Shown here: positions 94 through 30,400 of the stretch, piece by piece
Position numbering within the stretch: position 1 is the stretch's first letter
Layout of the letters: every line of letters begins with the position of its first letter
NCBI GenBank assembly: GCA_965113315.1
Contig: OZ220370.1
Origin: Podarcis vaucheri
Taxonomy: Eukaryota
DNA length: 64,000 nt
Direction: 5' to 3' (one strand)
The notes under the pieces: model-generated
Databases searched by the model: none
The model's input: only the letters and a program-made list of their open reading frames with translations
What the model was told of the DNA's origin: nothing
Made by a program: the position numbers and the translations under genes

Positions 94-192
<99 letters not shown>

Positions 193-724
193 TAATAATA
201 CTAATGTATTTTCTTATTGCTACTGTGTTTAAACACTGCTACTAGTGCTTGAATGAGCAATATAGAGTTGTGTTAGTAAATTATGTAATCATGATCATTT
301 GTTGGTCAACAGACAAAAGGGAAAATTAAGTTTACCACACTTAGTTGTCCATTGATGCATAAGGATTACTTGAGCTACATGCTCATTGCCTTTATTAACA
401 CACACCTAAAAAGTTACATTGATAATGCTCAACCTGTGACTGTGGAGTGAATGCAGGTCTTGCTTACTGTCAAGAAAGTGCAGCATTAGTAAACCAAAAG
501 TACACCTCTTCTCCCCACATACATACACATTTTGAAAGCATGTTAAGAGCTGTGTTTACACTTCAGATTCTAGTTTTTATTCAGTGACTTCTTACAGAAG
601 ACTGTGTTTCTGATATAATTAAAGGCACCATGGCTTCTAAATGAAGACAAAGCAATGCATTTTTGTTTCACCCATTCTTTGAAACTGTAACATCTCCTAA
701 CCTTTGTGGACTTCCTTCAGATAG

Positions 725-1201
<477 letters not shown>

Positions 1202-1650
1202 TAGCCTATCTCTGCAAGAAAACTACCCACAACTTACATTTTTCCTTTTCTAGGTTATGTATTGTAAATAAACCTTAGATTTATAGCTTCACAAATCACA
1301 AGATTAATGTAACAGTGGTGTGTATTTATATATTTTTATTTAATATTAATTAGATGAAATGTGAGCATGCAATATTCTTCCTGCATGAAAGCCTCTACCT
1401 GCATTTGTTTGTATCCCATTATTATTTATGTACGAAGCACATAATGTTTTCTGGGCGCTGTACAAATATCAAAAGCAACACAGAACCTGCCTGTAGGCTT
1501 ATAATCTCATAGGTATCCTACATAAAGATGGAGCAAGGAAAGAAAAACAAGCAAATTCAGGCATCAGTTAGTCATTAAACATTTAAGAAATTTTAAGAAT
1601 ATGTGGAATAGCAGCTGAAAATGTTTTTTGCCCTAAGATAACTAGAATAA

Positions 1651-1788
<138 letters not shown>

Positions 1789-2806
1789 TGATGAGCATAG
1801 GCCGAGTTGATTTGATGACGGTGGTGGTGGTGATAGCAATCTAAGCTGAAACTTTTAAAACCTTTTCTGAACAATGCAGTTTAAATACTGATGTTTACTG
1901 ACCCTGTTAAAATAAGTATGTCAGGACCTGTCATGAGAAGCATGTGTGTTTCAGGCTGGGACACCTCCTCCCCCCCCCCCCCCCCGGAGATCAGCACTAG
2001 AGAATAATTCAATGCTGTGCTGGTTTGTACATTATTTTCTCCTTATGGAGAGAGTGCACATAATTTTAGTGAGAATCTTAATTTTGTATGCTGCTCCTAC
2101 CAGATGCAGGAATACTTCTGTAAATGGAAACTGGTAGTTGAAGAATTCGACTGGAAAAGCTAAACCATGTCTGTCTTAATGGGAAAGCAAAATAATACTA
2201 TATTGCATGTGACATTCTGAAGAGAAAAATAAACAATCCATTTTTTTACTATGTTCATGCCGTTTTCCTTGTTCAGTTACTGTGCTGTTAGTGTCTGTAG
2301 AATGATCCTATTAAGGTTAGTGCTGGAAGAACATTTTAAAATCTCTGTATGGCATTTGTTTTATGTCTTGGCTTAAAGCAGTGTCAACAGCGTTCAAAAC
2401 TCCCATTGTTCTAGGCACATTTTGTGACTGGGAATTTCATTAGCACAAGCAATTTCTGAGCAGTACTGCACCTAAAATTTCTGATTTAAACTGCCGCTGC
2501 TGATGCTGAGGGCGTGGGAGGAGAAATTTCTGCCCGCTCAACTTCCAAGAAATCACTGCAGCATCAGGCAAGCTGATAGGTTCTGCCTCTCAGCTGGCCT
2601 TACAGAAAGGCAGTATTTTGAGCGACCCTCGAATATTAAGGGGGCAGGCAGGGGAAGCATGGCTTTGTGTTTTTCTGCAGTCTTCAGATGAGGACTAGAC
2701 CATGTGAAAAATGAACATAAGATTTTAGTAGCAGTTCATTAATTTTCAGTTTTGTATTGTTATAAAAAAGTGTGCCTAGTCATTCTGTTGTGGCACACAT
2801 AAGTTA

Positions 2807-3289
2807 TCGTATTTTTCGCGCTATAAGACACATTTTTTCCCCTCCAAAAATGAAGGGGAAATGTTTGTGCGTCCTATGGGGTGAATGCAGGCTTCAGGAA
2901 GCTATCCGCAAGCCTTGGGAGCCCGCGGGAGTTCCCGCCGGGCTCCCACGGTTTGCGGAGAGCTGCCTGCATCCCAAAGCCTGGGCATGCTGAGCAGTCG
3001 TGCCGGGGCTTCGGGTAGCTCTGCGCAAGCCGTGGGAGCCCTCCCACGGCTTGCACAGAGCTGCCTCTACACCCGAAGCCCGGGCGTGCTGAGCAGTCGC
3101 GCCAGGGCTTCGGTAGCTCTGCGCAAGCCGCGGGAGGGCTCCCACGGCTTGCGGAGAGCAGCCTGTTCTGGGGGCTGGGGAAACTCCGGCTTCCCCCGAC
3201 CCAGCCCTGTGCCTGGGGGGGAAATAAAATTTGTTTTCTTTATTTCCCCTCCAAAAAACTAGGTGCGTCCTATGAGGAGAAAAATACGG
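2807..3289. mobile_element. Non-autonomous Tc1/mariner (Tc2/MER104-like) MITE with GC-rich internal hairpin repeats
   Basis: TA|tcgtatttttc ... gaaaaatacgg|TA terminal inverted repeats with TA target duplication; CpG-rich interior. Confidence 0.8.
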
Positions 3290-4329
3290 TAGTTTAATGT
3301 CCCATTTAGCCCCTAGTTTTCATATCTCAGCTTCTACCACTGAGTGTCAAACAGTTTAAATTGCCAACAAGCTATCTGGAGAGAAAAAGGCTTCACTTCT
3401 TTTATCTGGTTCCTTTTCTTTCTCTCTCCTTTGTCCTCTCTTGCCCTTGAAAACTTTCCCATGTTTGTCCCCTTGCTTTGTTGATACCTGAGATAATACC
3501 AGGGGGTTAGATTCCTGGAGGCAGATCTAAATTAGAAGAGGGAACTGTGGACATGGTGTTGAGCAGTAACCCAAGTGTGTGTTGTTGACCTTAAAACCAG
3601 TACATTTCTGCTATGGGGGTGGCTTGGTCTGGGTGGACAGGGGTGGTTGAATGAGGTTGAAGGATCTAATAAGTGATATGCTGTGGATCTCCCCATAGGA
3701 GTCTGGGACTTGCCTACAAATTGCCTTTTTCTTAACTAATTGAAAAGAGTCTCGTACTTGCAAGACAAGTTGTGACTCTGATCCAGAAAGTGGGTACATG
3801 CCACATAAATGCTCTCCTTTGATGTGAGCTCAGAAATGCTTCGCCAAATTCTTAAGTTAAAGGGAAGTGCCTTTAACTTTAAATCCATGAGATCTGCATC
3901 GCATGTATTGGTCTTTATATTTGCTAGTTGTTTTCTACAAAAAAGTCTCAAACAATTTAACAACAGGGGTAAATGCCCAGCTGCACCATGGCCTGTCGTT
4001 ATTCTGAGCCTTTCAGTACTAGAGGGGAATGTTTTGGAAGAGTGGGCCTTAAAAATGTGTGCTCTGCGAGTCCCAAACAGTACTACAAAGTTCCTGTTCT
4101 AGACTGGCTGAAGACTTGCACAGCACACACTTTGTAGTATTTAGGGGTACACTGGAGCATTATGTTGTGGCACATGATTCTTTACGCTGACATTTCAGTC
4201 TTTAGAGGTTTGCTGTTTTTCTGGCTGAATGTTAAAAATACCCTTCAGCTTGTCCAGTTGTATAACTTTAAAGGTTGCATTTTGAAAACATGTTGAAAAC
4301 TTCTTGCCCTTGGCTTAGATGGAAATTAA

Positions 4330-4608
<279 letters not shown>

Positions 4609-5853
4609 TAATGATTGATACACTATAAACTCTTGGGCTTTGAATAATAAGCAGTTTGAAGTGGATAATAAACCAGATTGTGGAAATTTGAGTATTGTTC
4701 TCCCACCACCGATCAGAACATATTCTTGGCAGTAATGTGAGCCAAAATATAGTGCATGGTAGCTACTGGTTCAGTGTTGTGGTTTGCCATTGTTCCCTTT
4801 ATTTCTGATGTTCAGGCTGTGAGTACCAGTGCTCACGTAGCTTCCCAAGAGAGAGCTATCAGTAGATGCAGGAGTCCAAGGTGATGGGAAGGGGCACACT
4901 GAGGCAGTTAGCCACTGCCCATCCAGCTTATGCCACCCCCTCTCCTCTAACTATCTCCCCTCTGTGCACAGCAAAGATTACTTGATATTACATAGATAGG
5001 GTTGGCTGTTAGTTGCCCAGTCTGCATCTTCATATATCGCAACTGGTTTCTGAAACAATCTGGTCCTAAACTCTTAACACATTAAAGGTCAGAACCAGCA
5101 GTGTAAATAAAGCCCTGAAACAGATGGGCAACCAGTAGGGATGGTGTAAGACCCAGTCTTCCAGTACCTGATGACAACTGGTAGAAGTTTCCTGAATGTC
5201 TAAAGGGAACCCCACATTGTCACGACCTATTCACTTCGAAATTAGGGCATGAACAACTGATGCCAGATCTGTCATCTTCAGGAAGTAGAGACAGGCACAG
5301 ATGACAAATATTCTTTACTATCTACTCATGTTTTGCCTTAATTTGAAGCACGCTTTGTTAGACTGTGGATTTCTGAAGATAAAAAAGCATATTGCTTCAA
5401 AGGAAAAACAAAACTATACAGCATTCCTATACAGATGCCTTGTCATGCATCTCTGTATAGTGCCAAGGCTGATCTTAGTGGTGATGTCATTTGTCTCGGG
5501 TTGCTGAAAAAGCTATAACCCTTAGGATGGAAGAGATTCATATTCAAAATGGCAGCTGGCACTCGCTGTGAGCAATTTAGACAAGACTTAAAACACGTTT
5601 CTGTATATAAACTGTATATAGCTTCTCAAGGCCTTCTTCTGACTTTTATGACTGTGCTTTAGGCCTTGGGAAATTGGCTTTAGGGTTGGAAAAGCCATCC
5701 AGAGGTAAAGGCTGCAACTTGAACATATTTCCAGAAGTTCATTTTTCTGTGCCATTTGACTCATACAGAATACAAGGCTGGAAAGCTTGACTTAAACGCA
5801 TGGTGTGTGTACACTTCTGTGTCCAACGTGTTCCTCCCTGGTTCATGCAAATA

Positions 5854-6091
5854 CAGTCATACCTCAGGTTACAGACGCTTCAGGTTGCGTTTTTTCGGGT
5901 TACGGATGCGCCGGAAGTACCGGAACAGGTTATTTCCAGATTTCGGTGGTCATGCATGCACAGAAGCGCTAAATTGCACTTTGTGCATGCACAGAAGCGC
6001 CGAATCGCAACCCGCGCGTGCATACACGTGGCGCTGCTGGTTGTGAACGTGCTTCCTGCACAGATCATGTTTGCAACCTGAGCGTCCACTG
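5854..6091. mobile_element. Tigger/pogo-like MITE
   Basis: TA|cagtcatacctcaggtt ... aacctgagcgtccactg|TA, imperfect TIRs; related to the 40242-40474 element. Confidence 0.7.
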
Positions 6092-6852
6092 TAAAGGATT
6101 CATATCGCTTTACATTATTCATTTTTTATCGGTAACTACACAAACCTTTCGTTGCTCCTTTGTTTCTTAACCAATTCTTAGTCAACATAAATTTGCTGCT
6201 TCTTTAAACACATTTGGCATTTCCTCCAGCATAAACATAAATGAAAATATTTGTGCAATAGAACAGTATGTTTTAAAGCTATTATAAACATTTTGGTGTT
6301 GGTTGAACTATGAGCCAATTCATATATTGTTTCACCTGGCTCTCCTGCATATTTGAATGGCCTTGCTGAAGGTTTAGGGGTCAGTCCATCCCCCTAGCTG
6401 GCACTGGTGGGGCTTGATGGAGCTATGCAGCCACTGCTGCTTCCACAGCCCAGATCGGACCCATTGCCATCATGCAAGAGTAGTAAGGTTGGCACCGGAT
6501 CCATCTGGTGGTTGTTGATTGAAAGGGGAGAATATTAGCATTTTTTTTGTCCAGATGTTGATTGGACTAAAAAGTCTAAAGTGAAGACAGAAGATTAGGG
6601 GATAGGTTTAAAGCAGCCTTCCTCAATCATTTGCCCGCCAGATGTTTTGGACAACAACCCCTATCATCCCTGTCCACTGGCTGATGAGAATTTGAAGTCC
6701 CAAACTTATCTGTAGAGCAGCAACTTGGGGAAGATTGATTTTAAAGCTTTTCAAGCAGCTTTCTGTATCTAATTCATTTTTGTTATAATTACGTTGGGTT
6801 TCTTGTATACTGCTTAAAGGCAATTGTAATAAAATTGTGTACAAATTGTTGA

Positions 6853-7080
<228 letters not shown>

Positions 7081-7239
7081 TGATTTGATGCATTAACTGG
7101 TTCCGAAGCTAACTGGCAAATCAACAGGCCCTGCAGGTGAAGACAGTTGCAAGATATGAGAATATGTTGTCCAGTGTGAAGGTTTCTCTTGTTCTTTGAA
7201 ATGTCACTGTGTGTTGAATGTGTCAATTTTGTTTTACAG

Positions 7240-7344
7240 TTCTTTCAACAAGCCCTTAAAGATGAACTGTGCCGCCAAAACAATTTATATATCCAACCCT
7301 ATGCTTGCTATGAACTTGGCTGTCTCTTGTTAGAAGACCCACAG
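7240..7344 (+). CDS. TTC39C: TTC39C coding exon
   Basis: ttacag| FFQQALKDELCRQNNLYIQPYACYELGCLLLEDPQ |gtaaac. Confidence 0.95.
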
Positions 7345-9307
7345 GTAAACAGTACAGCATACTTTGGAACTGTCTAAAATTTGGTGTGACATTACTACTT
7401 CAAAAAGAGAAGTAGAGGAAGGTTGCAAGCAAGCTGGAATGTGCATTTTCTCTTTTTGGCCTTTCTTAGTGGTTTTATTTTTAACAACGTGCTCCTGTGT
7501 TCTGGGGAGTTGTATTAATCTTATCCTACCAGTTTACTGATTGCCTAACATAATTGCATCAAGTTTACCAGCAATTTATTGATATGACTCTTGCATTTAA
7601 TCAGTGCAATAAAATCAGTGGTCCATTTGAAATGTCCATTTATTCAGTCACTGCAGCATTGTTGGTGAAAAATGTTTAAATGTTGTGAAATGATATTGCA
7701 CTGGTTGTACAGGTGATGTTCTCAGATGGAGTCAAATGAATTGCATATGGCATTTCAACATATGATCTAGCTCAGGGGTGTAAAACCTTTTCAGCCTGGC
7801 GGGCTAGTTCCTGAACTCCACCATCCCCAGCCACTCTGATGTTGGTCACATGACATCAGCATGGTGTCAGGTGACCCATTTCCCCTTTTGCAATGAGGCT
7901 TGAGTTCAAGTATCACAATAAAAGGTTAAAGAATACTGCATGAGAAGATATCTAAATTGTGTTGCTGGTCTGTATACATGTAGCATTAGCATGTCAGGGA
8001 CCTGTAATTGATGCTATGCCAGTATGGTAGGTAGAGCCTAGTGGTCAAATTTTTTAAATTACATACATTGAACCCTTGTTGGGTAAGGGTTCTCCGTCTC
8101 CTCTTATTTCCTTTCTTTTACATGCTCAGCATTACTCTTAAACCAGGCATTAGCTGGCTGCGAATGTGGCTTGGAGTCTCTCTTCCTACCCCTACCTTTC
8201 CAGCACATTTAGGGTGAAGTGGGAGAGCGGTGGTTAGCATCATGGATGAGATTAGGAGGGAAGGGAAGAGCATCGGTACAGGTAAAGAGAGCGAGGAATG
8301 GGTGGCTTGCTGGGTTGCTTAAGCCCTTTTCCAGTAGGGAACACTCTTGAGTAGTCCAAGCATTATTAACATATACTTAATGCCTCCCAACTGTGCGTGG
8401 TAAAACTTGTGAAGCTAGTAAGAGTGTAAAGACCTAGGCATGTAAAAATTAGAGATCTTTGTACTCTTTCTCTTCATGCTTCATACACTCAGCCGCCCAC
8501 GCTTCTCTTCATTGCCATATTTAAAGAGAAGGTCTTAAAATAGCTTTTAATTAATGCTTTTCAGACCTGCCTCTTAATTGCTCTCCAGCAAGACCATGGA
8601 AAGGCAGCACGAGCTTGTTTTGAACATGAAAATCAGAGATCCACTGGCACATCGATGATGTATCAGTATTTTGAATTTGCCTTTTTATTTGGATCCTTAT
8701 ATGAAAAGGAGGGGATATACAAGGGCTATGCCCCATTTTTGTATACTTAAAAACACACAATGCATGTGGAAGATGGCTTGCGAGGTTTACTGCTTTCTAG
8801 AAGGAGATTGGGGGGGGGAGTCACGTTGCACAAGCAGAAATCCTTGTGCTAATGGGACTCATTAATTGAATATTGCCCACTGTGTGTGCAAATTTGTTCT
8901 TCTTTTTAATGTGGAGAGACAGCTGCCAGTTATTTTGAGATACCTAAAAACTTATTGAGTGACATTATTTATTAAAATTACGTATCTAATTTCTGGTAGT
9001 TGGCATTTTGCTATCCAAACTCATTATTAGAACTTGAATTCTCATTAGACCAGTTAAAGAGGGGCATTCAGTGGTGACTAACCAGACCATAGAACAAGTT
9101 TCCACTGGTGCAACAAGACGTCCTCTCCTCTCCCCTGCCTACCCCCAAATTTTTCACCGTAGGGTTTGGAAAACCTCCAGAGCAGATTTAAGCAGAGAGT
9201 GAAGAAATGGAGAAAGTCCCATAATGTGCCATTGTCTGTCTCCCAAAGTATTATTTTCTTGCATTTGCACACAAATTTTAAAAATGACATTTTGCTTCCT
9301 CCTGCAG

Positions 9308-9346
9308 ACAGTGCCAAGAGGCAAAGCATTACTGCTCCAGGCAAAG
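9308..9346 (+). CDS. TTC39C: TTC39C short (39 nt) coding exon
   Basis: ctgcag| TVPRGKALLLQAK |gtaaaa; recalled human TVGRGRALLLQAK. Confidence 0.92.
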
Positions 9347-9601
9347 GTAAAAAAAAGTGAATGAATTGAGCATTATTATTATACAGGTGGTGTGTCCTTT
9401 CCTTCATGATATAGCCTGGCTGGACTTGGAGGGTGGCATTGCTAATAGTAATTGTGGGATGTGAATGGAAACCTCTTATCCTTCCCAGCCTGCATTGCCA
9501 TTGAGGGTATTGAGCTATGTCCTATAAACAAATAAATGCCATATTCTGTCCTGCGTAGAAGTTACCATGTTTTTCTGGTAAACCTGAGTGACTTAGGCTA
9601 A

Positions 9602-9721
<120 letters not shown>

Positions 9722-17961: not shown

Positions 17962-18109
17962 ATGCATACCACAAAGCCCAGGATGGTGGTTCCTTATGGC
18001 CTCAAGACTCTACTTGAGGGAGTGAGCAGAGCAGTTCTGAAAGCCAGTCCCTCTAACATTACTGAATTTGCTGCTGTGTATTTCAGGGAACTGATACTTT
18101 TCCGAGAAG
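17962..18109 (+). CDS. CABYR: CABYR first coding exon (RIIa-like dimerisation/docking domain)
   Basis: MHTTKPRMVVPYGLKTLLEGVSRAVLKASPSNITEFAAVYFRELILFRE |gtttgc; recalled human MISSKPRLVVPYGLKTLLEGISRAVLKTNPSNINQFAAAYFQEL; acceptors upstream at 17926 or 17940. Confidence 0.93.
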
Positions 18110-18293
18110 GTTTGCTTTTCTTCTTTTTTAAGTTCAATACTAGTTTATAGAGCAATTCAGTGACATTTTGGACTAACAGTACTGCCGCAATGGCTCCAAT
18201 TTGTAAGTTGTCAGCAAACCACCCCCTTAAGCCTTTGTAAAATCTGATACCCTGAATTAAAATTAATTGGCTTTTCCCACCTTTTCTTTCCAG

Positions 18294-18347
18294 ACCACCC
18301 TAATTTAGACATTAAAGACCTGGTGAGAGAGTTTCATATGACTAGAG
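18294..18347 (+). CDS. CABYR: CABYR second coding exon
   Basis: ttccag| (D)HPNLDIKDLVREFHMTR(V) |gtaaga; recalled human DIKDLVKQFHQIK. Confidence 0.92.
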
Positions 18348-20813: not shown

Positions 20814-22013
20814 TGGAAGGATGGGCAGAAGGGACAGCAGGAGCGGCACAGGTGCCCCGCAAAAGGGCTGACGTGGGAGATGCATATAGGCCAGAGGTGG
20901 ACACGACGGCTCCGATGAGTGACGAACCGAAACGGAAGGAGAAATCGACTGACACAGAAGAGGACCAGATAAGTGAAGAACCACGCCGTGAACAGTGCAC
21001 CAAGACAACCCAGTACCCATCGACCGTGGACGAGTTTGTAGACAGGGCTGGGGACGAAAAGGGAGCTGGGCTCGCCTACGTCCCGGCCGATCCAGCCCAG
21101 CTGGCATCCCAGATGCTAGGTAAAGTTGAACCTGTTTCTTCCGAAGCTGAACTGAAGGATGTGGCGATCTCAGTGCAGACACTCCCTACCTCCTCCCAAA
21201 GTATAGAGAATCTTGCTGCTTCAGTCACAGAGGCCCCGCCACCCTCACCCGCACCGGAACCTGCCCCTGCCCCTTCGGAAGTAGCGCCTGCCCCTGCAGA
21301 AGAGGAACCGCCTGCCCCTGCAGAACCAGAACCTGCCCCCGCAGAACCGGAACCTGCCCCCGAGGAACCGGAACCTGCCCCTGCGGAACCGGAACCTGCC
21401 CCCGCAGAACCAGAGCCTGCCCCCGAGGAAGCAGAGCCCGCTGCGCCTGCAGAAGCAGAAGCAGAGCCTGCTGCCCCTGCAGAAGCAGAAGCAGAACCTG
21501 CTGCCCCTGCAGCTTCTGTGCACTCTCTCAGGGCTGGGTCCGCCACTCAAAGCCACACCTCTGCTCTTGGGGAGGTAGTTACCCCAGGCAGTCAGGCTGA
21601 GCAGCCACCTGCTGACGTAGCAGATCCAGATTCCTCAGACCCCTTGCTGGAAGAACAGCCGCCCCCGCCACCACCACCACCTCCTCCTCCTGATAAAGAC
21701 CCATTGCAGGCTGAATCTTGTTCAAGTGAAATTGAGCTCACATCAGACATACAGCTCACCCCCATGTGTGATGATGATCCCAATGCTGGTGGAGAGCCCC
21801 AACCACCACCGTATGTAGAGCAGTTTCCGCAGCAGATAGTAATTCCTTTCGTAGACACTGTAGCATGTCTCTTTAATCCGCTGATGGCTTCACAGAATGC
21901 AGGTCAGTTTGCTAGTATTCTAGATCCATCTGCAGATGATGCAGAATGTGACCCTGACAGGATGGATACTGCAGAGGAACTGAGTTCAGCTGATCCAGGT
22001 TTTATTATGTCAG
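20814..22013 (+). CDS. CABYR: CABYR large exon (acidic/Pro-rich CR-A region); internal alternative donor after 21119, distal donor after 22013, TAG at 22058-22060 if unspliced
   Basis: ctgcag| (V)EGWAEG...EKSTDTEED...AYVPADPAQLASQMLGKV...YVEQFPQQIVIPFVDTVACL; these blocks match recalled human CABYR. Confidence 0.9.
21311..21511 (+). repeat. CABYR: Coding minisatellite in CABYR: 6 x 21 nt (PAPAEPE) plus 2.5 x 30 nt (PAAPAEAEAE)
   Basis: Direct reading of the cctgccccYgcagaaccRgaa and cctgctgcccctgcagaagcagaagcagaR units. Confidence 0.93.
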
Positions 22014-23548
22014 GTAAGAAAGTCAAGATATTTCTGAAAGCTGCCTATTCCATGTTGTAGTGCTATTATTGCTCCATAATCAACAGATGGCTCCATCTCC
22101 TCAAATGCACTTGTGCCCATAGCTCAGCTGAGACTGAGGTCACACCCACGCTGTACATTAAAAGCACATGGCTCCCCCGACAAAGCATACTGGGAACTGC
22201 AGTTTACCTCTCACAGAGCCCCCAGACCCTTAAACTACAATTCCCAGGACTTTGTCGGTGAAACCATGTGCTTTAAATGAATGGTGTGGTTGTGGCCCCA
22301 AAGGCCTTGTGCTGGTACAGTGCCTTGGGGACTGGAGCTTTAATTATTTAAATGCAAGTATCTATGGCAGTGCAGTGTTGAGATAAGTGATTGGTCACTT
22401 TTGCGTTTAGGGAGTTACAGAGCCCACAGCACCAAACTGGAATGTGCATGTCTGGAATTTTTGCCTCTGTTTTTTTCCAGGTGCATGGTTGATTGTGAGT
22501 AGGCCCAAAAACGTACCTTGTGTGAGTGCCAGCTGCCCCGTTTTTCTGCTCAAGTCTTGTATCATTTCCTGCAAGCAGACTGGGCCGGAGCAGGATGACA
22601 TTCAGCGGGGAGTTAGGCCAATGCCTTTTGGCCCTTCTTTAAACCATGATTAGCCCCTCTCACAATAGACTATGCATCTTGAATCAAAATTACACACATG
22701 CTCACAACGGTTAGCAGAAAGTGATGTGGGTGACTGTGGCTTCAGGTTGTGTTTTTTAAAAAATGAACTAGTATTCAGATGCTCAGCCATGGCACTGCTT
22801 AGGTTTTTGCATTTAAAAGAAATGGTGGTGGTTGCCTGGGCTGTCCCATTAGGCCTGGTCTTCTCCAGATTGTTGACAGAGAGGGGACTAATCGCTTCTT
22901 GCTGAGAACTGCAGATCTTGCTGCAGCTGGAGGATTGGCTTCCCATGGCGACACCGTTTCCTCTCGTTCTCTGCTCTCCCTCTGTGAGAAGTGTGTAGCC
23001 CACTCCTGTTCTCGAGCTGGAGAAGCCCTCCTAGCACCTTTCCCTTGGCCTTAGTGTGCCCTGCGATGGCACACTATTCCCTAGAGTCACTTCCCATTAG
23101 AGAGGTGTAGGTAGGTAAGGTCTGGAAGCATCTTACAGAAGAGAGAATGCCGAAGGGGACAGGAGCTAGAGGAACACAAAGAGTTGGCATGGCTGGACAG
23201 GACTTGTGGTCGAGGAGACACTTTCAACCCATGATCTTTGGGTCACCCATACGAAAACAGTATCCTTACAACCAACAGAAGTACCTAATGACAAAAATTG
23301 CCCCCCAAAGTTGTGAATCTGATACTTTGGATTTATTTCGAAAATTATGAGAACCGGTTCTTCTGCTGTTCTCCATTTCAGCCATGCCAAGGTCCTCCCT
23401 TTTGCCTTCAGGGATTCTCTCCTCTCTGTAACATCCTTTCTTTGTGGCATAAAGTTGTGGGTAAGGCTATGCAATGTGACTGCAGTTCGTACATCCTACT
23501 AGATGGTCTTTCATGCCAGCAAATTTTCTTTAAATTTTTATTTTATAG

Positions 23549-24183
23549 CCATGGCAACAAGCGAACCAGGACAACCACCACCATATTCTAATGTGTGGAC
23601 TCTCTATTGTCTAACTGATATGCATCAACAAGGTCGCAAGTCACCACCACCTCCACCACCCCTTCCACCTGTTGGAACTGGTGCTCCTGTTCCCCAGGCA
23701 ACCCTATTCATATCTAGTGGTAAGGACCAGCCGCAGTATCTACAGCCACAGATGCTACAACAAGGCCAACCACCACAAGTGTCCTCTCCAACTTATGTGA
23801 TGATGGAAGAAGGGAAGAAAGGAAATGCACCACCTTTCATTTTAGTGGGCTCTTCTGTTCAGAATAAACAGGACTGGAAACCCATACCTGGCCATGCTGT
23901 CCTTGCACAGCAGGATACTGGCGGGACTGTGAGGAGGTTCGCTACGATACCTGTACCAGTTGCCAGGGCAGCAGATCCGAAAATGGCCAATCCCAATTTT
24001 AACTCTGCACAGGATAGCGGCAGGCCTCCAACTCCAGTTTTTCTTTCAGTTGCCATACCACTGGAAGATGTGATGAATGGGAAGAAGGGCTCAGGAGCTG
24101 GGGATAAAGCACCCTTTGCAGGCAGCTATGGTATAGCAGGAGAGATCACATTTACTACTGCCTCTGTGCGCAGGACAGAATAG
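23549..24183 (+). CDS. CABYR: CABYR CR-B exon with TAG stop
   Basis: ttatag| (A)MATSEPGQPPPYSNVWTLYCLTD...APPFILVGS...PVFLSVAIPLEDV...GSYGIAGEITFTTA; matches recalled human CR-B. Confidence 0.93.
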
Positions 24184-24418
24184 CAAAAGGGTAAGTAGAT
24201 CAGTTCATTTTGTTTGTTATTTTAATGGTTGGTTGGTTGATTGTAGAGATGTATACTCTAGTGGGCTACATTTCTAATATGCTGCAGCCATTCTGGGATC
24301 AGAAAGTTTTCTTCCATGGTTGCAAACTGGGGGGGGGGGTATCCCTAACTCCACATTTATTTTATGCATTTCCCTCTAGAGAAGAAGCTGTACCATTTTC
24401 ATATTGGGAACGGTGAAA

Positions 24419-24424
24419 AATAAA
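24419..24424 (+). terminator. CABYR: Candidate proximal CABYR poly(A) signal
   Basis: AATAAA about 235 nt after the stop, with T-rich sequence downstream; would be intronic if the donor after 24190 is used. Confidence 0.4.
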
Positions 24425-27400
24425 TAGTAGACAAGTAGTTTATTTTTTAAGGGTTGTGAGCTGCTGAAAATGGGACACTAAAATAATGTTGGAATTCTCT
24501 GCACACACCTCAGTTGGCAATGACCATAAGCTTTCAACTTGGAACTCGAATCCTACAGGGTTCAATGGAATGTATTCCCAGGTGATGGCTCTGATGCAAA
24601 AGTTTGTGCTTAGCTTCTGTTTTGTTTTTTTTAATGAAACTTAAATTCTCTTCTGTTTGGCAGAAAAGTTAAAAGTTTGGAAATTGAATACCCTCCACCT
24701 TGCCCCGCAATTCATTGGTAGGACTTTTGTATTCAGGAAAGGACTTGATGCAGGTGTAAAGAAACCTTTGGCCCTCCAGATGTTGCTGAACTACAACTCC
24801 CACCAGCCTCAGCAAGCTTGGCCAGGGATGATGGGACTTGTAGTGCATGGAGAGAGAGGCTTGGCGCGTAGAGAGGGTGATGGCACATGGAGCACTGTGT
24901 TGTGCACATCTGTTCCCTGCCCAGTTATGCACCTGGGACCCTGTTTCCAAGGACATAGTGCTCTGAGCTGTATGAGGGTGCTGATGCCGTTCACATCTTA
25001 ATTGGTTTGGTGAGTGTGTCCCTTTTTCAGAGATGCAGTGGCAAATCAAGTGTTGTTCATAGAACATTTTAAAAAATACTCAGCAAATGACTGAAGGGAT
25101 GTTGTTGATTTCCTTTGGAATGTGCATTTGGCCAGTTTCTGAGAAACGGGTTTGAAGCTTGTGAGCCCCCTTGCTGAATCTGTTGTCATTTGCTTTCCTT
25201 TTCCTTCATGTGCATTGTCCGTTATTGGAGACTAAGTTTGGGTTAGAAGGTCCACAGAATACTTGCTGCAAGTTTTCTACATTACAGAATTAATGAAGAG
25301 CTATCTTTAAAATAGAGGGTGGCATTCAACTAAGTTTTACTGAGAGCAGATCCTTTAAAATTAATGAACATCACTAAATTGGAGCCATTCATTTGAATAA
25401 GTCTGAGTAAAACTTAGTTGAATGCCACTCAGAGTTATTTTACAGCTGCTATTGCATGTGAAAGATAAAAGTAGTTTTGTTCTGGTTGTTGTTGAACTTG
25501 AAAGTATGGAATAGGTTGCAGGTTTTCTAGAGATTTGCTGAGACATGCAGATCAGTTCCGTTCTTTTTTCAACAATCCATGAAATGCTGTCTTTGTTACT
25601 TCTGAAAATCTTACCCAGTTTGCCTTTGCTTTGATGCTTTAGAACTGCTGCTCTGTATTGGTGACAACCACAGCGTCAGCCTGCTTGTGGAACAGATGTC
25701 CAGTTCTGACACAGGCCTTACCCATCCACTTCCACCCCTACTCCTCACATGACATTGGATATTGTCTAATGTATTGTTTAAAAGGACACATGTCATGGCG
25801 TTGAGGGCCAATTACTCAGTGTATCAGAGTGTATGAGAATAGCCAAACAGGGAGGGGGAGATATTAGACTTAAATTCGGGGATGATCTGGGGTTTGTCAA
25901 AGTGCTGGTGTTGTAAAATTGCAGTGATTATGAAACAGTAGATCAGTTCCTACAAACATCGTGTAAATGGGTCAAATGCAACTTTGTTGGCAGCAGATGA
26001 GGCCAGCTTAAGCCACAAGGAGCTCAAGAGCTGCTGAGGGCTTGGTGGTGTCATTCTAGCCTGGTGGGCCTCATAATGCAGATGCCTTGTTGTACTTAAA
26101 ACAGTTCTGCAATAGTTACAGTTCTCATCATCATGAGCTGACCAAGTAGTTAAAGATAGCATAGCCTACAAAGGGTGGGTGGGTGTAATTCGGTCCTATC
26201 GAGAAATTAAACCATGAATAGATGTGACCCTCAAAGATGGGCATAAAGTAAACATACTTTTGGGAGTAGTTTCCAATAACATAGGTCACAAACACACTAG
26301 ACATTTAAAGCACATGATCTGCCCCAAAGAATCTGGAGAACTGTAGACTTGCAATTCCAAACACCCTTAACAGACTACAGTTCCCAAGGTTCTCTTGGGG
26401 AAGCCATGTGGTTTAAATCTGCCTTTCATGTACTTTCCATATATAGCATGGATGTGATGAGAGCTGACAGTTGCATCAGTACAAGGCAGAAAGCCATGTC
26501 AGAATTAAAAATATAGCAGGTAAAATATTTGTAAAAGAGTGCAGTGGTGGCAGCTTTCTGCTAAGGAGAATTTTACATTTGGAAGAGTGAGGGTAGACCA
26601 CATGACTTGCAGGCAGAATGTCCACAGTTCATTCCCTGGCATCTCCAGCTTGGGTTGTCTAAGAAACCCTGGCAAGCTCCTGGCAGTGCAGACCAGGTTG
26701 GCAGGGGGCATGTGGAGAAGGTAGGTTGGGCTCTACTGGTAGATCTACAGTTGTTTGACAATGGGAACAACAAAATTCATCTCCCTGATGAAGTTAGGAA
26801 AGGCCATGGGGAGGAGGGGGACAGGGTCTCTAGGAGTGGATTTTTGTGTAGGACAGCAATTCCATGCCTGAGCTTCGAATTTCGTAATTCAATGCCTATT
26901 TTCTCATGTTATTCACATACAGATGTATGTCAGGTGCAGGCAGGGCTAAAAGCATGGTTCTGTTCTGCAACCATCCAATTATGTTCCACCTGTAAGTAAC
27001 ACGTGAATAGGGTTAAGGCATCTGTTAAAACACCATGTAGCTCTTACAGACTTGATGCATTCCCACCTTCGGTGTAGACAGTATCAGTTTAGCTGCACCA
27101 AAATTGTACATAAACATCCATTTCCTTTAATGTAGTAGTTGGAGGTGAAGGACAAATTTCAGGCTCATAGCCGGGCTAAAAGCTTGGATGGGGTGGGGGT
27201 GAACAACACAAAAGTAGATATTGGTACACATTAATGTTTTACTTGTATTAATTAAGGCTATATAAAGATGGTGATAATGATCATTACTTCTGTTTCTTGC
27301 ACAAGCTCTGCAGTAATGATAGGCCAGCTTAGAGGGAAACTATTTCTGGGATTGCCAGAGCACAGCATCCTCCTTCCGCCTTTTCCTCTGTTCTCCACCT

Positions 27401-30400
27401 CTCTTTTTCATCCGTCCTTCCATCTCTCACCTCCCCTTCCCCCAATTCTTTCCAACCACCATTCTTTCCCAATGTGTTCTCAGGTACTCCAACCCCAAAA
27501 ATTACTCTCCCTTCCACCTTCCCAATAACTACGTGTAGTTACACGATTTTATATTTCTCCCTCAAAGCGAGACCTGACTGTCTGATCTTTGTAAGCAACT
27601 CTGGAAACTTTTTTAGGCTATAGAGATGCTAAAATGCATCATTTTCCTGTCAGTTGTATAGTATTACAGAATAAAAACCTTCATGCGTCAGAACAGTGGG
27701 ATTTGTTAAGATTCTTGAAGCACTGGGTTGTATTCACAGGCTAAAAAAGCAAAAACTTGATTCAAGATAGATAGAAAAGAGCAACCTTTTCTTTAAAATG
27801 GGGTAGGGATCAGATTATATGAAAAGGCTTTTCACAGAAGAGCAGGCCCATTCCAAAGGCCCATCTAATCCCGCATCCCTGGATTCCCCCCAATGGAAAC
27901 CAGGTTCAAAATGAAGCCCACAAGCAGAGTTTGAGGCTAATAATGCTTTTCTGTTAGTCTCCATCAGCCTATTCAGAGACAGACAGCCTCTGAACCTGGA
28001 GAAAGAAAGATATCTCAATTGACAGCTGTATGGAACATCCAGTTAGAGGCAGGCTAGCCCTTGAGTAAGCTGGCATTGTGGAAGGGGGTTTTAGTTTCAA
28101 ACCCTACACCTTCATTGCATGATGAGCTGCGTGAAGAAGTCATTTGTAAGAATCACAAAAACTTTTAAATTATTTTGAAAAGCTATAAAAAAGTGTGATT
28201 CTGTGTCTACCCAGAAGTAAGTCCTACTAAATCCAATGGAACTTACTCCCAGGTATGGCTGTAGCCTTAATTTCCTAGCTACGTATAGTTCAGAAGAGGT
28301 TAGGAAGATGCTCCGCCTTAGCTTTCTGTTCCCATTTGGGTGGTAGGACCATGACATCTGTGGAAATCAATGCCCCTTCTGGTTGGCACTGGTTGCAATG
28401 TTTCAGCTGGAAACAGGGAGCACCAAACTACTGTAATTGTAATTCTTTCTCCTGGCACCCTTCCACTTGGTGCACAGTTGTGCACGATTGTACTTTAAAA
28501 AACAGAGTTAATAGAATCCCTGCTGTCTGCCATGGCAGATAGGTTTGTGAATCACTTGCACAAAGGAAATAATTCTGAAGTTGGGGAGATTAACATCAGC
28601 AAGGGCTTACTAAATCTCTAAGCAGCCCTTGCATGTCAACAAAAGCCTCCAGAATTTGCTCTTCTCTGCTCCCCCATAATCTCATTTTCATCCCACATGT
28701 ATTTGCCATACTGGCTGTCTATAGGTCTATAGAGTCTGGTCCCCAAATACATCTCTCTGTATCTACTTACCCTTGGAGTTAAAGATCTGTGGAGGAGGTC
28801 TTGCTTCTGATGACCCGAGACAGGGCATTCTCTGCTACTGTGCCCCATTTGTGGAACTTCTACTAGAAATAAGATAGTCCTCTGTTTTACCACTTTTTCA
28901 TCACCCAGTGAATATGCCGTTTTGTTTCTGTAGTGGGGTAGAGCTGAGATCCATTATGTTTGTCATGACCGTGTTTGATTGTAGATTGCTGCTGAGATTG
29001 TTTTTTAATGCATATGTGATTAAAGCAAACATACAGCTGAGGGTGGGGGTGCTCCAAGTTAGCCCACCCCCTTAAGAGGATCAGAAATGAGTTGCAGAGT
29101 CATGGTGCCCTCACTCTGCTCTTGCATGCTTCAAGGTTCTTGGTCAGCACCAGTCGGTTTGCTGTGACACCTGAATCAGCAAAACATTGTTCGCACACGG
29201 CCTCAAAGCCGAAATTGGAAACCTACTTCAAACTGTAGTTTCCAATTTCTTGCTGTAAGGAAGGCCACAGAGCACATGCTTTGCTGGTTATAGTTCGGGT
29301 GCTCAAACCACTGATTTCTCTAGTTAAAAGAACTTGGTTTGTAGGGCTGGGAACAACGACCTCTGGCTGAGATTGTTTGAGAGTTGCTGTCAGGTTAGAA
29401 TGCACTGAGTCCTTATACCTTTCTGCAAGAAAATGCGGTAGAGCATATGCGCCGATGTTTTGCTACTGCTATGTACAAAAAATGCTAAATTCACTGAGTT
29501 AAACTTTTTCCCTCCCAGATTGAGAAGAGGTGCTGTTCAACATTTCACCCCAGAATGGAAACCTGCATCTTTAATTAGAAATTGATTAACTAATACACGC
29601 AATAAAGCAATGCAAGCGCTCTTATCTAAAGACTGTTTTTTAAAAAGCATTGGTATTTAGTTATAAGACTAGTAATCAAGGAGTAGTGAACTAAAATCAG
29701 GACACTTTCCTCATTTTGACCTTTGATCTATTTGAGAAATTTAAAATGGACTGCTAGGGAAAGAAAGTCTAAATGAACGTTGCCCTTATTGTTATATAGT
29801 TCCTAAAGTTCAGGACAATATTCTCTTCCCAGTAAGTTGTCACGCTACTTGGAAGGCCCTTAGTCAGAAGTCTTATGACTGGGTAATTGACAAAATAGAA
29901 TGTCATGTCCAGGAAATACAGAATGAGGGCATGGAGATTCCATGCAACTGCAAAATGAAAACAGGCTCTCATATAAGAATGCTGTTTTGTCTCAGCCATT
30001 GGTTTTTCCATCCCAAGGTGGGAACTAGAAAGCCTCCACCCACAATTTTTGGGTGGTTGTAGTAGCAGGACATTAATTGTGGTCATTCTGGCAATTCCGA
30101 GGGCTCGCGCGAGAGAGAGGCAGGCTAAGCTCTTATTTCAAGTTGGACTTTGGATATATAGAGAAGCGGCAGTACTCACTGCTTCTTTGTAGTTCTAAAC
30201 CCCATACTTAAGAAAGAGGCTAATTATTTCCCTCTCTCCAAGTTCCCTGGTATGGCAGAAGACTTTACAAAAGTTTAGGGGCCCCATCTCTCCTGCCCAA
30301 CACAAAGTGTCCTCTCCCACCTCAAAATTATACAATATGTGAAGCAAGCCTTTGCTGTATGCTAGACAACCTGGAGCAGTAAGACAGTTGTGGGTTACCA

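Follow-up and report, generated by a model that had tools for sequence, protein, structure and literature searches.

Open-frame CABYR in the lizard Podarcis vaucheri: predicted splice isoforms and probable repeated closure of the CR-A end among placental gene models

The analyzed window comprises 64,000 nucleotides of contig OZ220370.1 (assembly GCA_965113315.1) from Podarcis vaucheri and harbors the gene CABYR on its plus strand. Coding exon 1 (17962..18109; 148 nt) provides the ATG start codon and the RIIa (AKAP-docking) domain, which was matched by the Pfam model PF02197 with an E-value of 2.7e-10 and 40.2 bits against a cut-off of 22.4. For the 3' part of CR-A and for CR-B, no Pfam domain was obtained at E 0.1. 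An N-terminal RIIa docking domain is also found in the R2D2 proteins ROPN1, ROPN1L and SP17 (PMC3398308), but these are absent among the named CR-A and CR-B matches, which are named CABYR. Within the best 120 of 218 matches, a Podarcis model was closest to CR-B (99% identity over 61% of the query), and named CABYR of the worm lizard Rhineura reached 96%. Among the matches listed, identities of 68–76% were determined for turtles, a crocodilian and ratites, and of 54–59% for mammals. CR-B has one match in the whole genome, i.e., CABYR is a single-copy gene. Upstream of CABYR, TTC39C-like exons were located at window positions 94–9679, in agreement with fused TTC39C-CABYR models of a lizard and a hamster. 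The fusions themselves, present in Podarcis and hamster database models (P0022, P0209), are wrong or rare.

All coding donors and acceptors of the gene are in phase 1. Coding exon 2 (18294..18347; 54 nt, phase 1 to phase 1) is followed by a large exon of 1200 nt (20814–22013). The 5' part of this exon (20814..21119) is common to all predicted isoforms and ends at an internal donor, D1 (CTAG/GTAAAG; 21119). Its 3' part (21120..22013), overlapped by a contig of dataset X13 described below, represents the acidic, proline-rich CR-A block and ends at donor D2 (TCAG/GTAAGA), the top-scoring donor among those listed between 20814 and 23548 when a crude matrix is applied. Tandem repeats of 21 and 30 nt encoding Pro-Ala-Glu units (21287..21512) are expanded in squamates; compared with placental CR-A, the lizard region possesses this repeat and lacks approximately 100 placental residues. 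The CR-B exon (23549–24183; 635 nt) starts at acceptor A1 (TATAG/CC) with a body of 167 codons (23549..24049), which is left out when the internal acceptor A2 (TTTTTCTTTCAG/TTG; 24050) is used. The tail behind A2 (24050..24183) ends at a TAG codon. A2 shows the highest pyrimidine count among the AG sites listed in the CR-B exon and is in frame with A1, because it is located 501 nt behind 23549. The two exchangeable blocks, the CR-A 3' block (297 aa; 21% Asp plus Glu, 2% Lys plus Arg) and the CR-B body (5% acidic residues, 18% Pro, 10% Gln), are clearly different in composition; both are proline-rich and of low complexity. Further downstream, an AATAAA motif (24419..24424) directly past the end of the X13 contig (24411) is the likely proximal poly(A) signal, and a last exon of 3' UTR (29519..29640, 3' end approximate) is joined to a donor at 24190 in datasets X1 and X2. 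Regarding smaller features of the layout, the donor of exon 1 at 18109–18115 is weak (AAG/GTTTGC; score of about 0 with the crude matrix), the 54-nt exon 2 is absent from ratite models, and the CR-B exon starts with CC ATG G in sauropsids, with Ile or Leu at this place in placental models.

Based on this layout, two donors and two acceptors yield four in-frame products, namely D1 joined to A1 (380 aa), D1 to A2 (213 aa), D2 to A1 (678 aa) and D2 to A2 (511 aa). A previous sequence-only reading of the locus had proposed that CR-A and CR-B can be joined in one stop-free frame by splicing a phase-1 donor after 22013 to a phase-1 acceptor at 23549. The DNA bears this out: the four exons sum to 2037 nt (148 + 54 + 1200 + 635) and encode 678 aa plus the stop codon, with zero internal stops. 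Likewise, reading on past 22013 into the intron reaches TAG at 22058..22060 after 482 aa, as had been stated; this codon is met only on intron retention. A further exit leads from D2 to the last exon at 29519 (468 aa). D1, A2 and this last exon had escaped the sequence-only reading. For the 511-aa form, which includes 44 CR-B tail residues, a pI of 4.13 was predicted; predicted masses are 41.2 kDa for the 380-aa form and 23.4 kDa for the 213-aa mini form. Since a phase match by itself has a chance of one in three, support for the D2-A1 junction comes from conservation, its junction peptide recurring in models of other squamates, turtles and crocodilians.

Two additional observations concern the surroundings of D2. 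An in-frame acceptor is also present within the large exon at 21936 (CTGCAG/ATG); in a Pantherophis model D1 is joined to the corresponding position, and a comparable internal acceptor is used in a tiger model. An intron within this exon may therefore be conserved. Moreover, the peptide encoded by the retained intron (22014–22060) starts alike in lizard, snake-like, crocodilian-like, tortoise and mammal models, and in a snake-like protein the tail up to the stop is as long as in the lizard. This likeness stems either from conservation of the splice signal or from a tail that is a genuine minor product.

In order to evaluate which junctions are used, positions 21520–24500 were compared with four of 24 listed sequencing runs, comprising three contig sets guessed to be RNA (X1, X2 and X13) and one raw RNA run (X23). 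All four originate from related organisms, with tissue unstated; X13 is the sole deep run, and X1, X2 and X23 are shallow. In X13, exons were covered at depths of 430–450 and the intron at 27. An X13 contig of depth 450 spans 21521–22009 and resumes at 24046 with four shared letters. The joint corresponds to 22013^24050 after shifting the cut by four letters to GT..AG ends, with 30 letters on the short side. It rests on this one run and documents use of the donor at 22013, for which the sequence-only reading had called. In X1, X2 and X13, the letters before A1 (loose ends before 23546) are identical to those preceding D1, which corresponds to 21119^23549; this junction was thus seen in three of the four runs, originating from three studies. 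The raw run X23 contributed nine reads and no listed joint. The 22013^23549 junction, whose detection had been suggested as a check of the 678-aa fusion, was listed in none of the four runs over 21520–24500. This absence is weak evidence because contigs drop variants, three runs are shallow, and seven loose ends are unlisted. Furthermore, the X13 contig passes D1 unbroken despite the branch expected there, and therefore the assembler loses real branches. The depth of X13 past 24050 is 430, compared with 450 and 429 for the incoming contigs, and is not their sum; one possibility is a fall-off towards the 3' end. Two 3' ends were noticed as well: X13 continues past the donor at 24190 to about 24411, before AATAAA, and X1 and X2 splice to 29519. 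An intronic X13 contig (22277–23569; depth 27) extends 20 nt into the CR-B exon and represents either pre-mRNA or a transcript with its start in the intron.

These results bear on how a long form poor in CR-B would arise. The sequence-only reading had expected an A-only form to be made by a mechanism other than the mammalian stop codon. A different mechanism does apply, in that 22013^24050 yields a long form with little CR-B, but the intron retention it had considered is unseen, since no X13 contig crosses 22020–22119, a stretch that includes the TAG at 22058..22060. It is hardly credible that the lizard makes an A-only form by retaining the intron (482 aa) or by a D2-to-last-exon splice (468 aa), with 22013^24050 being peculiar to the X13 organism. 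The shared beginnings of the retained-intron tail in snake-like, crocodilian-like, tortoise and several mammal models would fit such forms, as would the intronic X13 contig and ends of the D2-to-last-exon type annotated in turtles, kiwi and open placentals, and the last exon lies outside the stretch compared with the runs. Against them stand the gap in X13 over 22020–22119 and the occurrence of D2-A2 models in squamates, turtles and crocodilians.

The distribution of junction types was determined by scripted classification of 52 named long sauropsid models from 35 genera among the matches listed; unnamed rows, including the bird-like P0366 with a divergent tail, were left out of the count. None of these 52 models ends before D2, so a CR-A stop in most other sauropsids, named beforehand as evidence against an ancestral fused frame, was not encountered. 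The D2-A1 junction is annotated in 24 of the 35 genera (models listed), and D2-A2 in 19 by script, or 20 with Pantherophis read by eye; D2-A2 models occur alike in squamates, turtles and crocodilians. According to the table read by eye, nine genera show both long junctions or further exits. Zootoca XP_034981026.1 (497 aa, labelled isoform X2) has the same D2-A2 junction type as the lizard 511-aa form, and Pogona XP_020641387.3 (684 aa) is among the automatic squamate models, both long junctions being represented in RefSeq/GenBank. A protein of the 678-aa type is probably among the existing lacertid database models.

Given that genera with an annotated D2-A1 junction outnumber those with D2-A2 among sauropsids (24 versus 19), the 678-aa protein may be a regular isoform. 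A stronger proposal, that the fusion is the main functional isoform in lizards and open mammals and that the stops of other placentals were selected to silence it, appears unlikely. It draws on the D2-A1 models, which occur in 24 of the 35 sauropsid genera as well as in many placentals and are often the longest isoform, and on the junction peptide kept across amniotes. However, a used donor and a used acceptor of equal phase would yield a D2-A1 model even if the fusion had no function. In addition, D2-A1 was unseen in all four runs, and the one deep run sends D2 to 24050. The case also serves as a warning that the longest database isoform may differ from the main product.

Amphibian outgroups were obtained from a profile search of 1.84 billion representatives. 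It yielded long proteins named CABYR of 726 aa from a newt, 1175 aa from a caecilian and 803 aa from a frog, and inspection by eye showed that each of these models combines RIIa with A-type and B-type motifs in a single chain. The open A-to-B frame is therefore likely older than amniotes. Hence, the earlier suggestion that the fused frame is the ancestral amniote state gains support and can probably be extended to a deeper node.

The second part of that suggestion, one derived mammalian stop, is not supported. Placental states were taken from the ends of protein models rather than from mammalian DNA, and the tree was drawn from general knowledge. The set comprised 66 named models from 62 genera (sources: best 120 of 218 matches, all 70 of a second search, part of each cluster). 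Excluded were UniRef-only and unnamed rows, two low-quality fused models, and further cat-family and other redundant rows, as well as gibbon, squirrel monkey, blind mole-rat and giant pangolin because of other splice ends; the marmot was measured and not placed on the tree. Open through D2 are 27 of the 66 models (25 of 62 genera), among them cats, seals, most bats sampled, camels, rhino, moles and baleen whales, and 39 (37 genera) end before D2. At least ten irreversible losses are needed on this tree; the Fitch count is also ten, with an open root. The losses concern elephants (6 codons before D2), Euarchontoglires (4–7), hedgehog (4), Pteronotus (12), Equus (12), alpaca (14), pig (42), dolphins (12), porpoise (28) and badger (2). 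These model ends all fall within the last 42 of the 313 codons between D1 and D2, at different places and of different kinds. As many as 13 losses may have occurred, because four kinds of Euarchontoglires ends exist (simians, strepsirrhines, colugo and Glires). Near relatives differ in state, with the closed member named first, in elephant and manatee, horse and rhino, alpaca and camel, dolphins and porpoise versus beluga and narwhal, badger and mink, and hedgehog and moles.

More than one genome or source supports five of the losses, namely those of elephants with 2 genera, Equus with 4 named taxa, dolphins with 4 counted rows and more genera among the matches, pig with curated NP_ and GenBank entries as well as unnamed assemblies, and Euarchontoglires with 24 genera. 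The remaining five (hedgehog, alpaca, porpoise, badger and Pteronotus) are represented by one species each. Simian and murid relatives are in the rows used; human and mouse proteins are absent among the named rows. No long model of ruminants, marsupials or monotremes occurred among the matches, the opossum rows being short forms only. Ends at the Gln before the donor in UniRef-only models (pig 469 aa, peccary, blue whale), as well as horse models skipping the stop position, were set aside as probable artefacts of projection, because these groups look different in their NCBI models.

That the placental pattern is mostly an annotation artefact of gene-prediction choice or assembly error, with one to three real closures, is very unlikely. 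Odd ends or a skipped residue do occur in some UniRef-only models, namely those of pig (469 aa), blue whale (448 aa) and horse (482 aa), two fused models are flagged as low quality, and all placental states derive from protein models. Furthermore, the horse-cluster protein P0255 is open, which speaks against a fixed horse stop. However, five losses have the backing of several genomes or sources, and sister groups read through cleanly.

Open placentals also differ in how the long form ends. No D2-A2 product was present among 70 matches, although the length range would allow it; in their A-only models, D2 is either spliced to a short last exon or read through into the intron. In macaque and opossum, an internal CR-B acceptor is located five codons downstream of lizard A2 and is used with D1; the lizard has no AG at that place.

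Mouse and human CABYR (fibrousheathin-2; isoforms I, III, IV and VI) resemble the lizard gene in the RIIa domain, the internal donor after a PADPAQ motif and the CR-B exon. According to PMC3398308, mouse isoform III has a mass of 41.3 kDa, compared with 41.2 kDa for the lizard short A+B form of about 380 aa. Mouse isoform VI has 23.9 kDa, compared with 23.4 kDa for the lizard mini form (221 aa in macaque), and the long acidic mouse form has a pI of 4.0, compared with the predicted 4.13. The main mouse sperm forms described there are a CR-A-only protein of 80 kDa and pI 4 and a 50-kDa protein with CR-B, which form heterodimers; AKAP3 and AKAP4 are binding partners of the RII domain. The same source and the summary in PMC11276731 report fibrous-sheath location, AKAP3/4 binding, calcium binding and tyrosine phosphorylation for mouse CABYR, and a disorganised fibrous sheath on its loss. 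Mouse and primate CABYR have a stop between CR-A and CR-B, whereas the lizard has none before 22013; its long form, unlike that of mouse and human, extends into CR-B, either by the 44 residues of the tail (511 aa) or by the whole of CR-B (678 aa).

In the mouse, CR-A and CR-B are separated by two TGA codons and six in-frame nucleotides (PMC3398308). However, the starts given there, nt 73 for CR-A and 1443 or 1449 for CR-B, place the two regions in different frames, even though the text calls the spacer in-frame. Moreover, rodent models terminate with three residues of a shifted frame, and in the rodent-like protein P0195 the intron is read in a frame that lies one base away from that of the open lineages. 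Readthrough as the source of A+B products in rodents is unlikely, because the frame between CR-A and CR-B appears to be shifted by one base. Stop readthrough has reportedly been proposed for human A+B products. An in-frame stop followed by a conserved coding extension, the hallmark of readthrough, is not what the lizard shows, as its frame has no stop. The open frame in many lineages removes the need for this explanation, and a split of CR-A and CR-B by a stop is probably not ancestral and is not general to mammals.

Taken together, the account we consider probable is that CABYR is a single open-frame gene for which mainly a long 511-aa and a short 380-aa form are likely, with the 678-aa form a lesser product, that the open frame is ancestral, and that at least ten placental closures occurred. 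The lizard would mainly make a long acidic form without the CR-B body and a short form with it, and the 678-aa fusion would be possible but likely minor. By inference from the mouse data, long and short forms would dimerise and, via RIIa, bind to AKAP3/AKAP4 in the fibrous sheath of sperm. Since the lizard pair of 511 and 380 aa mirrors the mouse sperm pair, the conserved unit that emerges from the comparison is inferred to be the isoform pair itself, i.e., a long acidic form without the CR-B body and a short form with CR-B.

Starting from an open A-to-B frame as the presumed tetrapod state, the sauropsid long form would terminate through a spliced-on CR-B tail (D2-A2), needing an open frame up to the donor; sauropsids would stay open for this reason. 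The placental long form, as suggested by models running from the donor to the last exon, would end without CR-B, thus leaving the last CR-A exon codons free for stops and frameshifts. The rest of CR-A would remain intact in placentals, with the final codons taking stops or frameshifts at least ten times. Long acidic CABYR likely works without the CR-B body, which reptiles splice out, placentals having repeatedly hard-wired the cut. The complete sequence of events is proposed tentatively and may well need revision: an open tetrapod frame with the CR-B body spliced out, a shifted acceptor in therians, a long form terminating at the last exon in placentals, and stops or frameshifts independently fixed in 10 to 13 placental lineages and in no sauropsid sampled.

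The gene and both long junctions were known from database models; the repeated-loss pattern is absent from the literature found. No paper on reptile CABYR isoforms or on the origin of the stop was retrieved by a search that left most subscription journals aside, and the searched passages of PMC9502204, PMC7939523 and PMC4855019 hold nothing on isoform structure. The placental closures would provide a dated series of truncations that arose independently at the end of a single exon. Should they be driven by selection against the complete fusion, horse and rhino, alpaca and camel, and dolphin and beluga would be natural experiments on sperm-tail structure.

Changes in CR-A are also apparent in birds, where segment duplications or repeats were observed in swift, hummingbird, tinkerbird and woodpecker models (P0353, P0354, P0356, P0358; 672–1128 aa).
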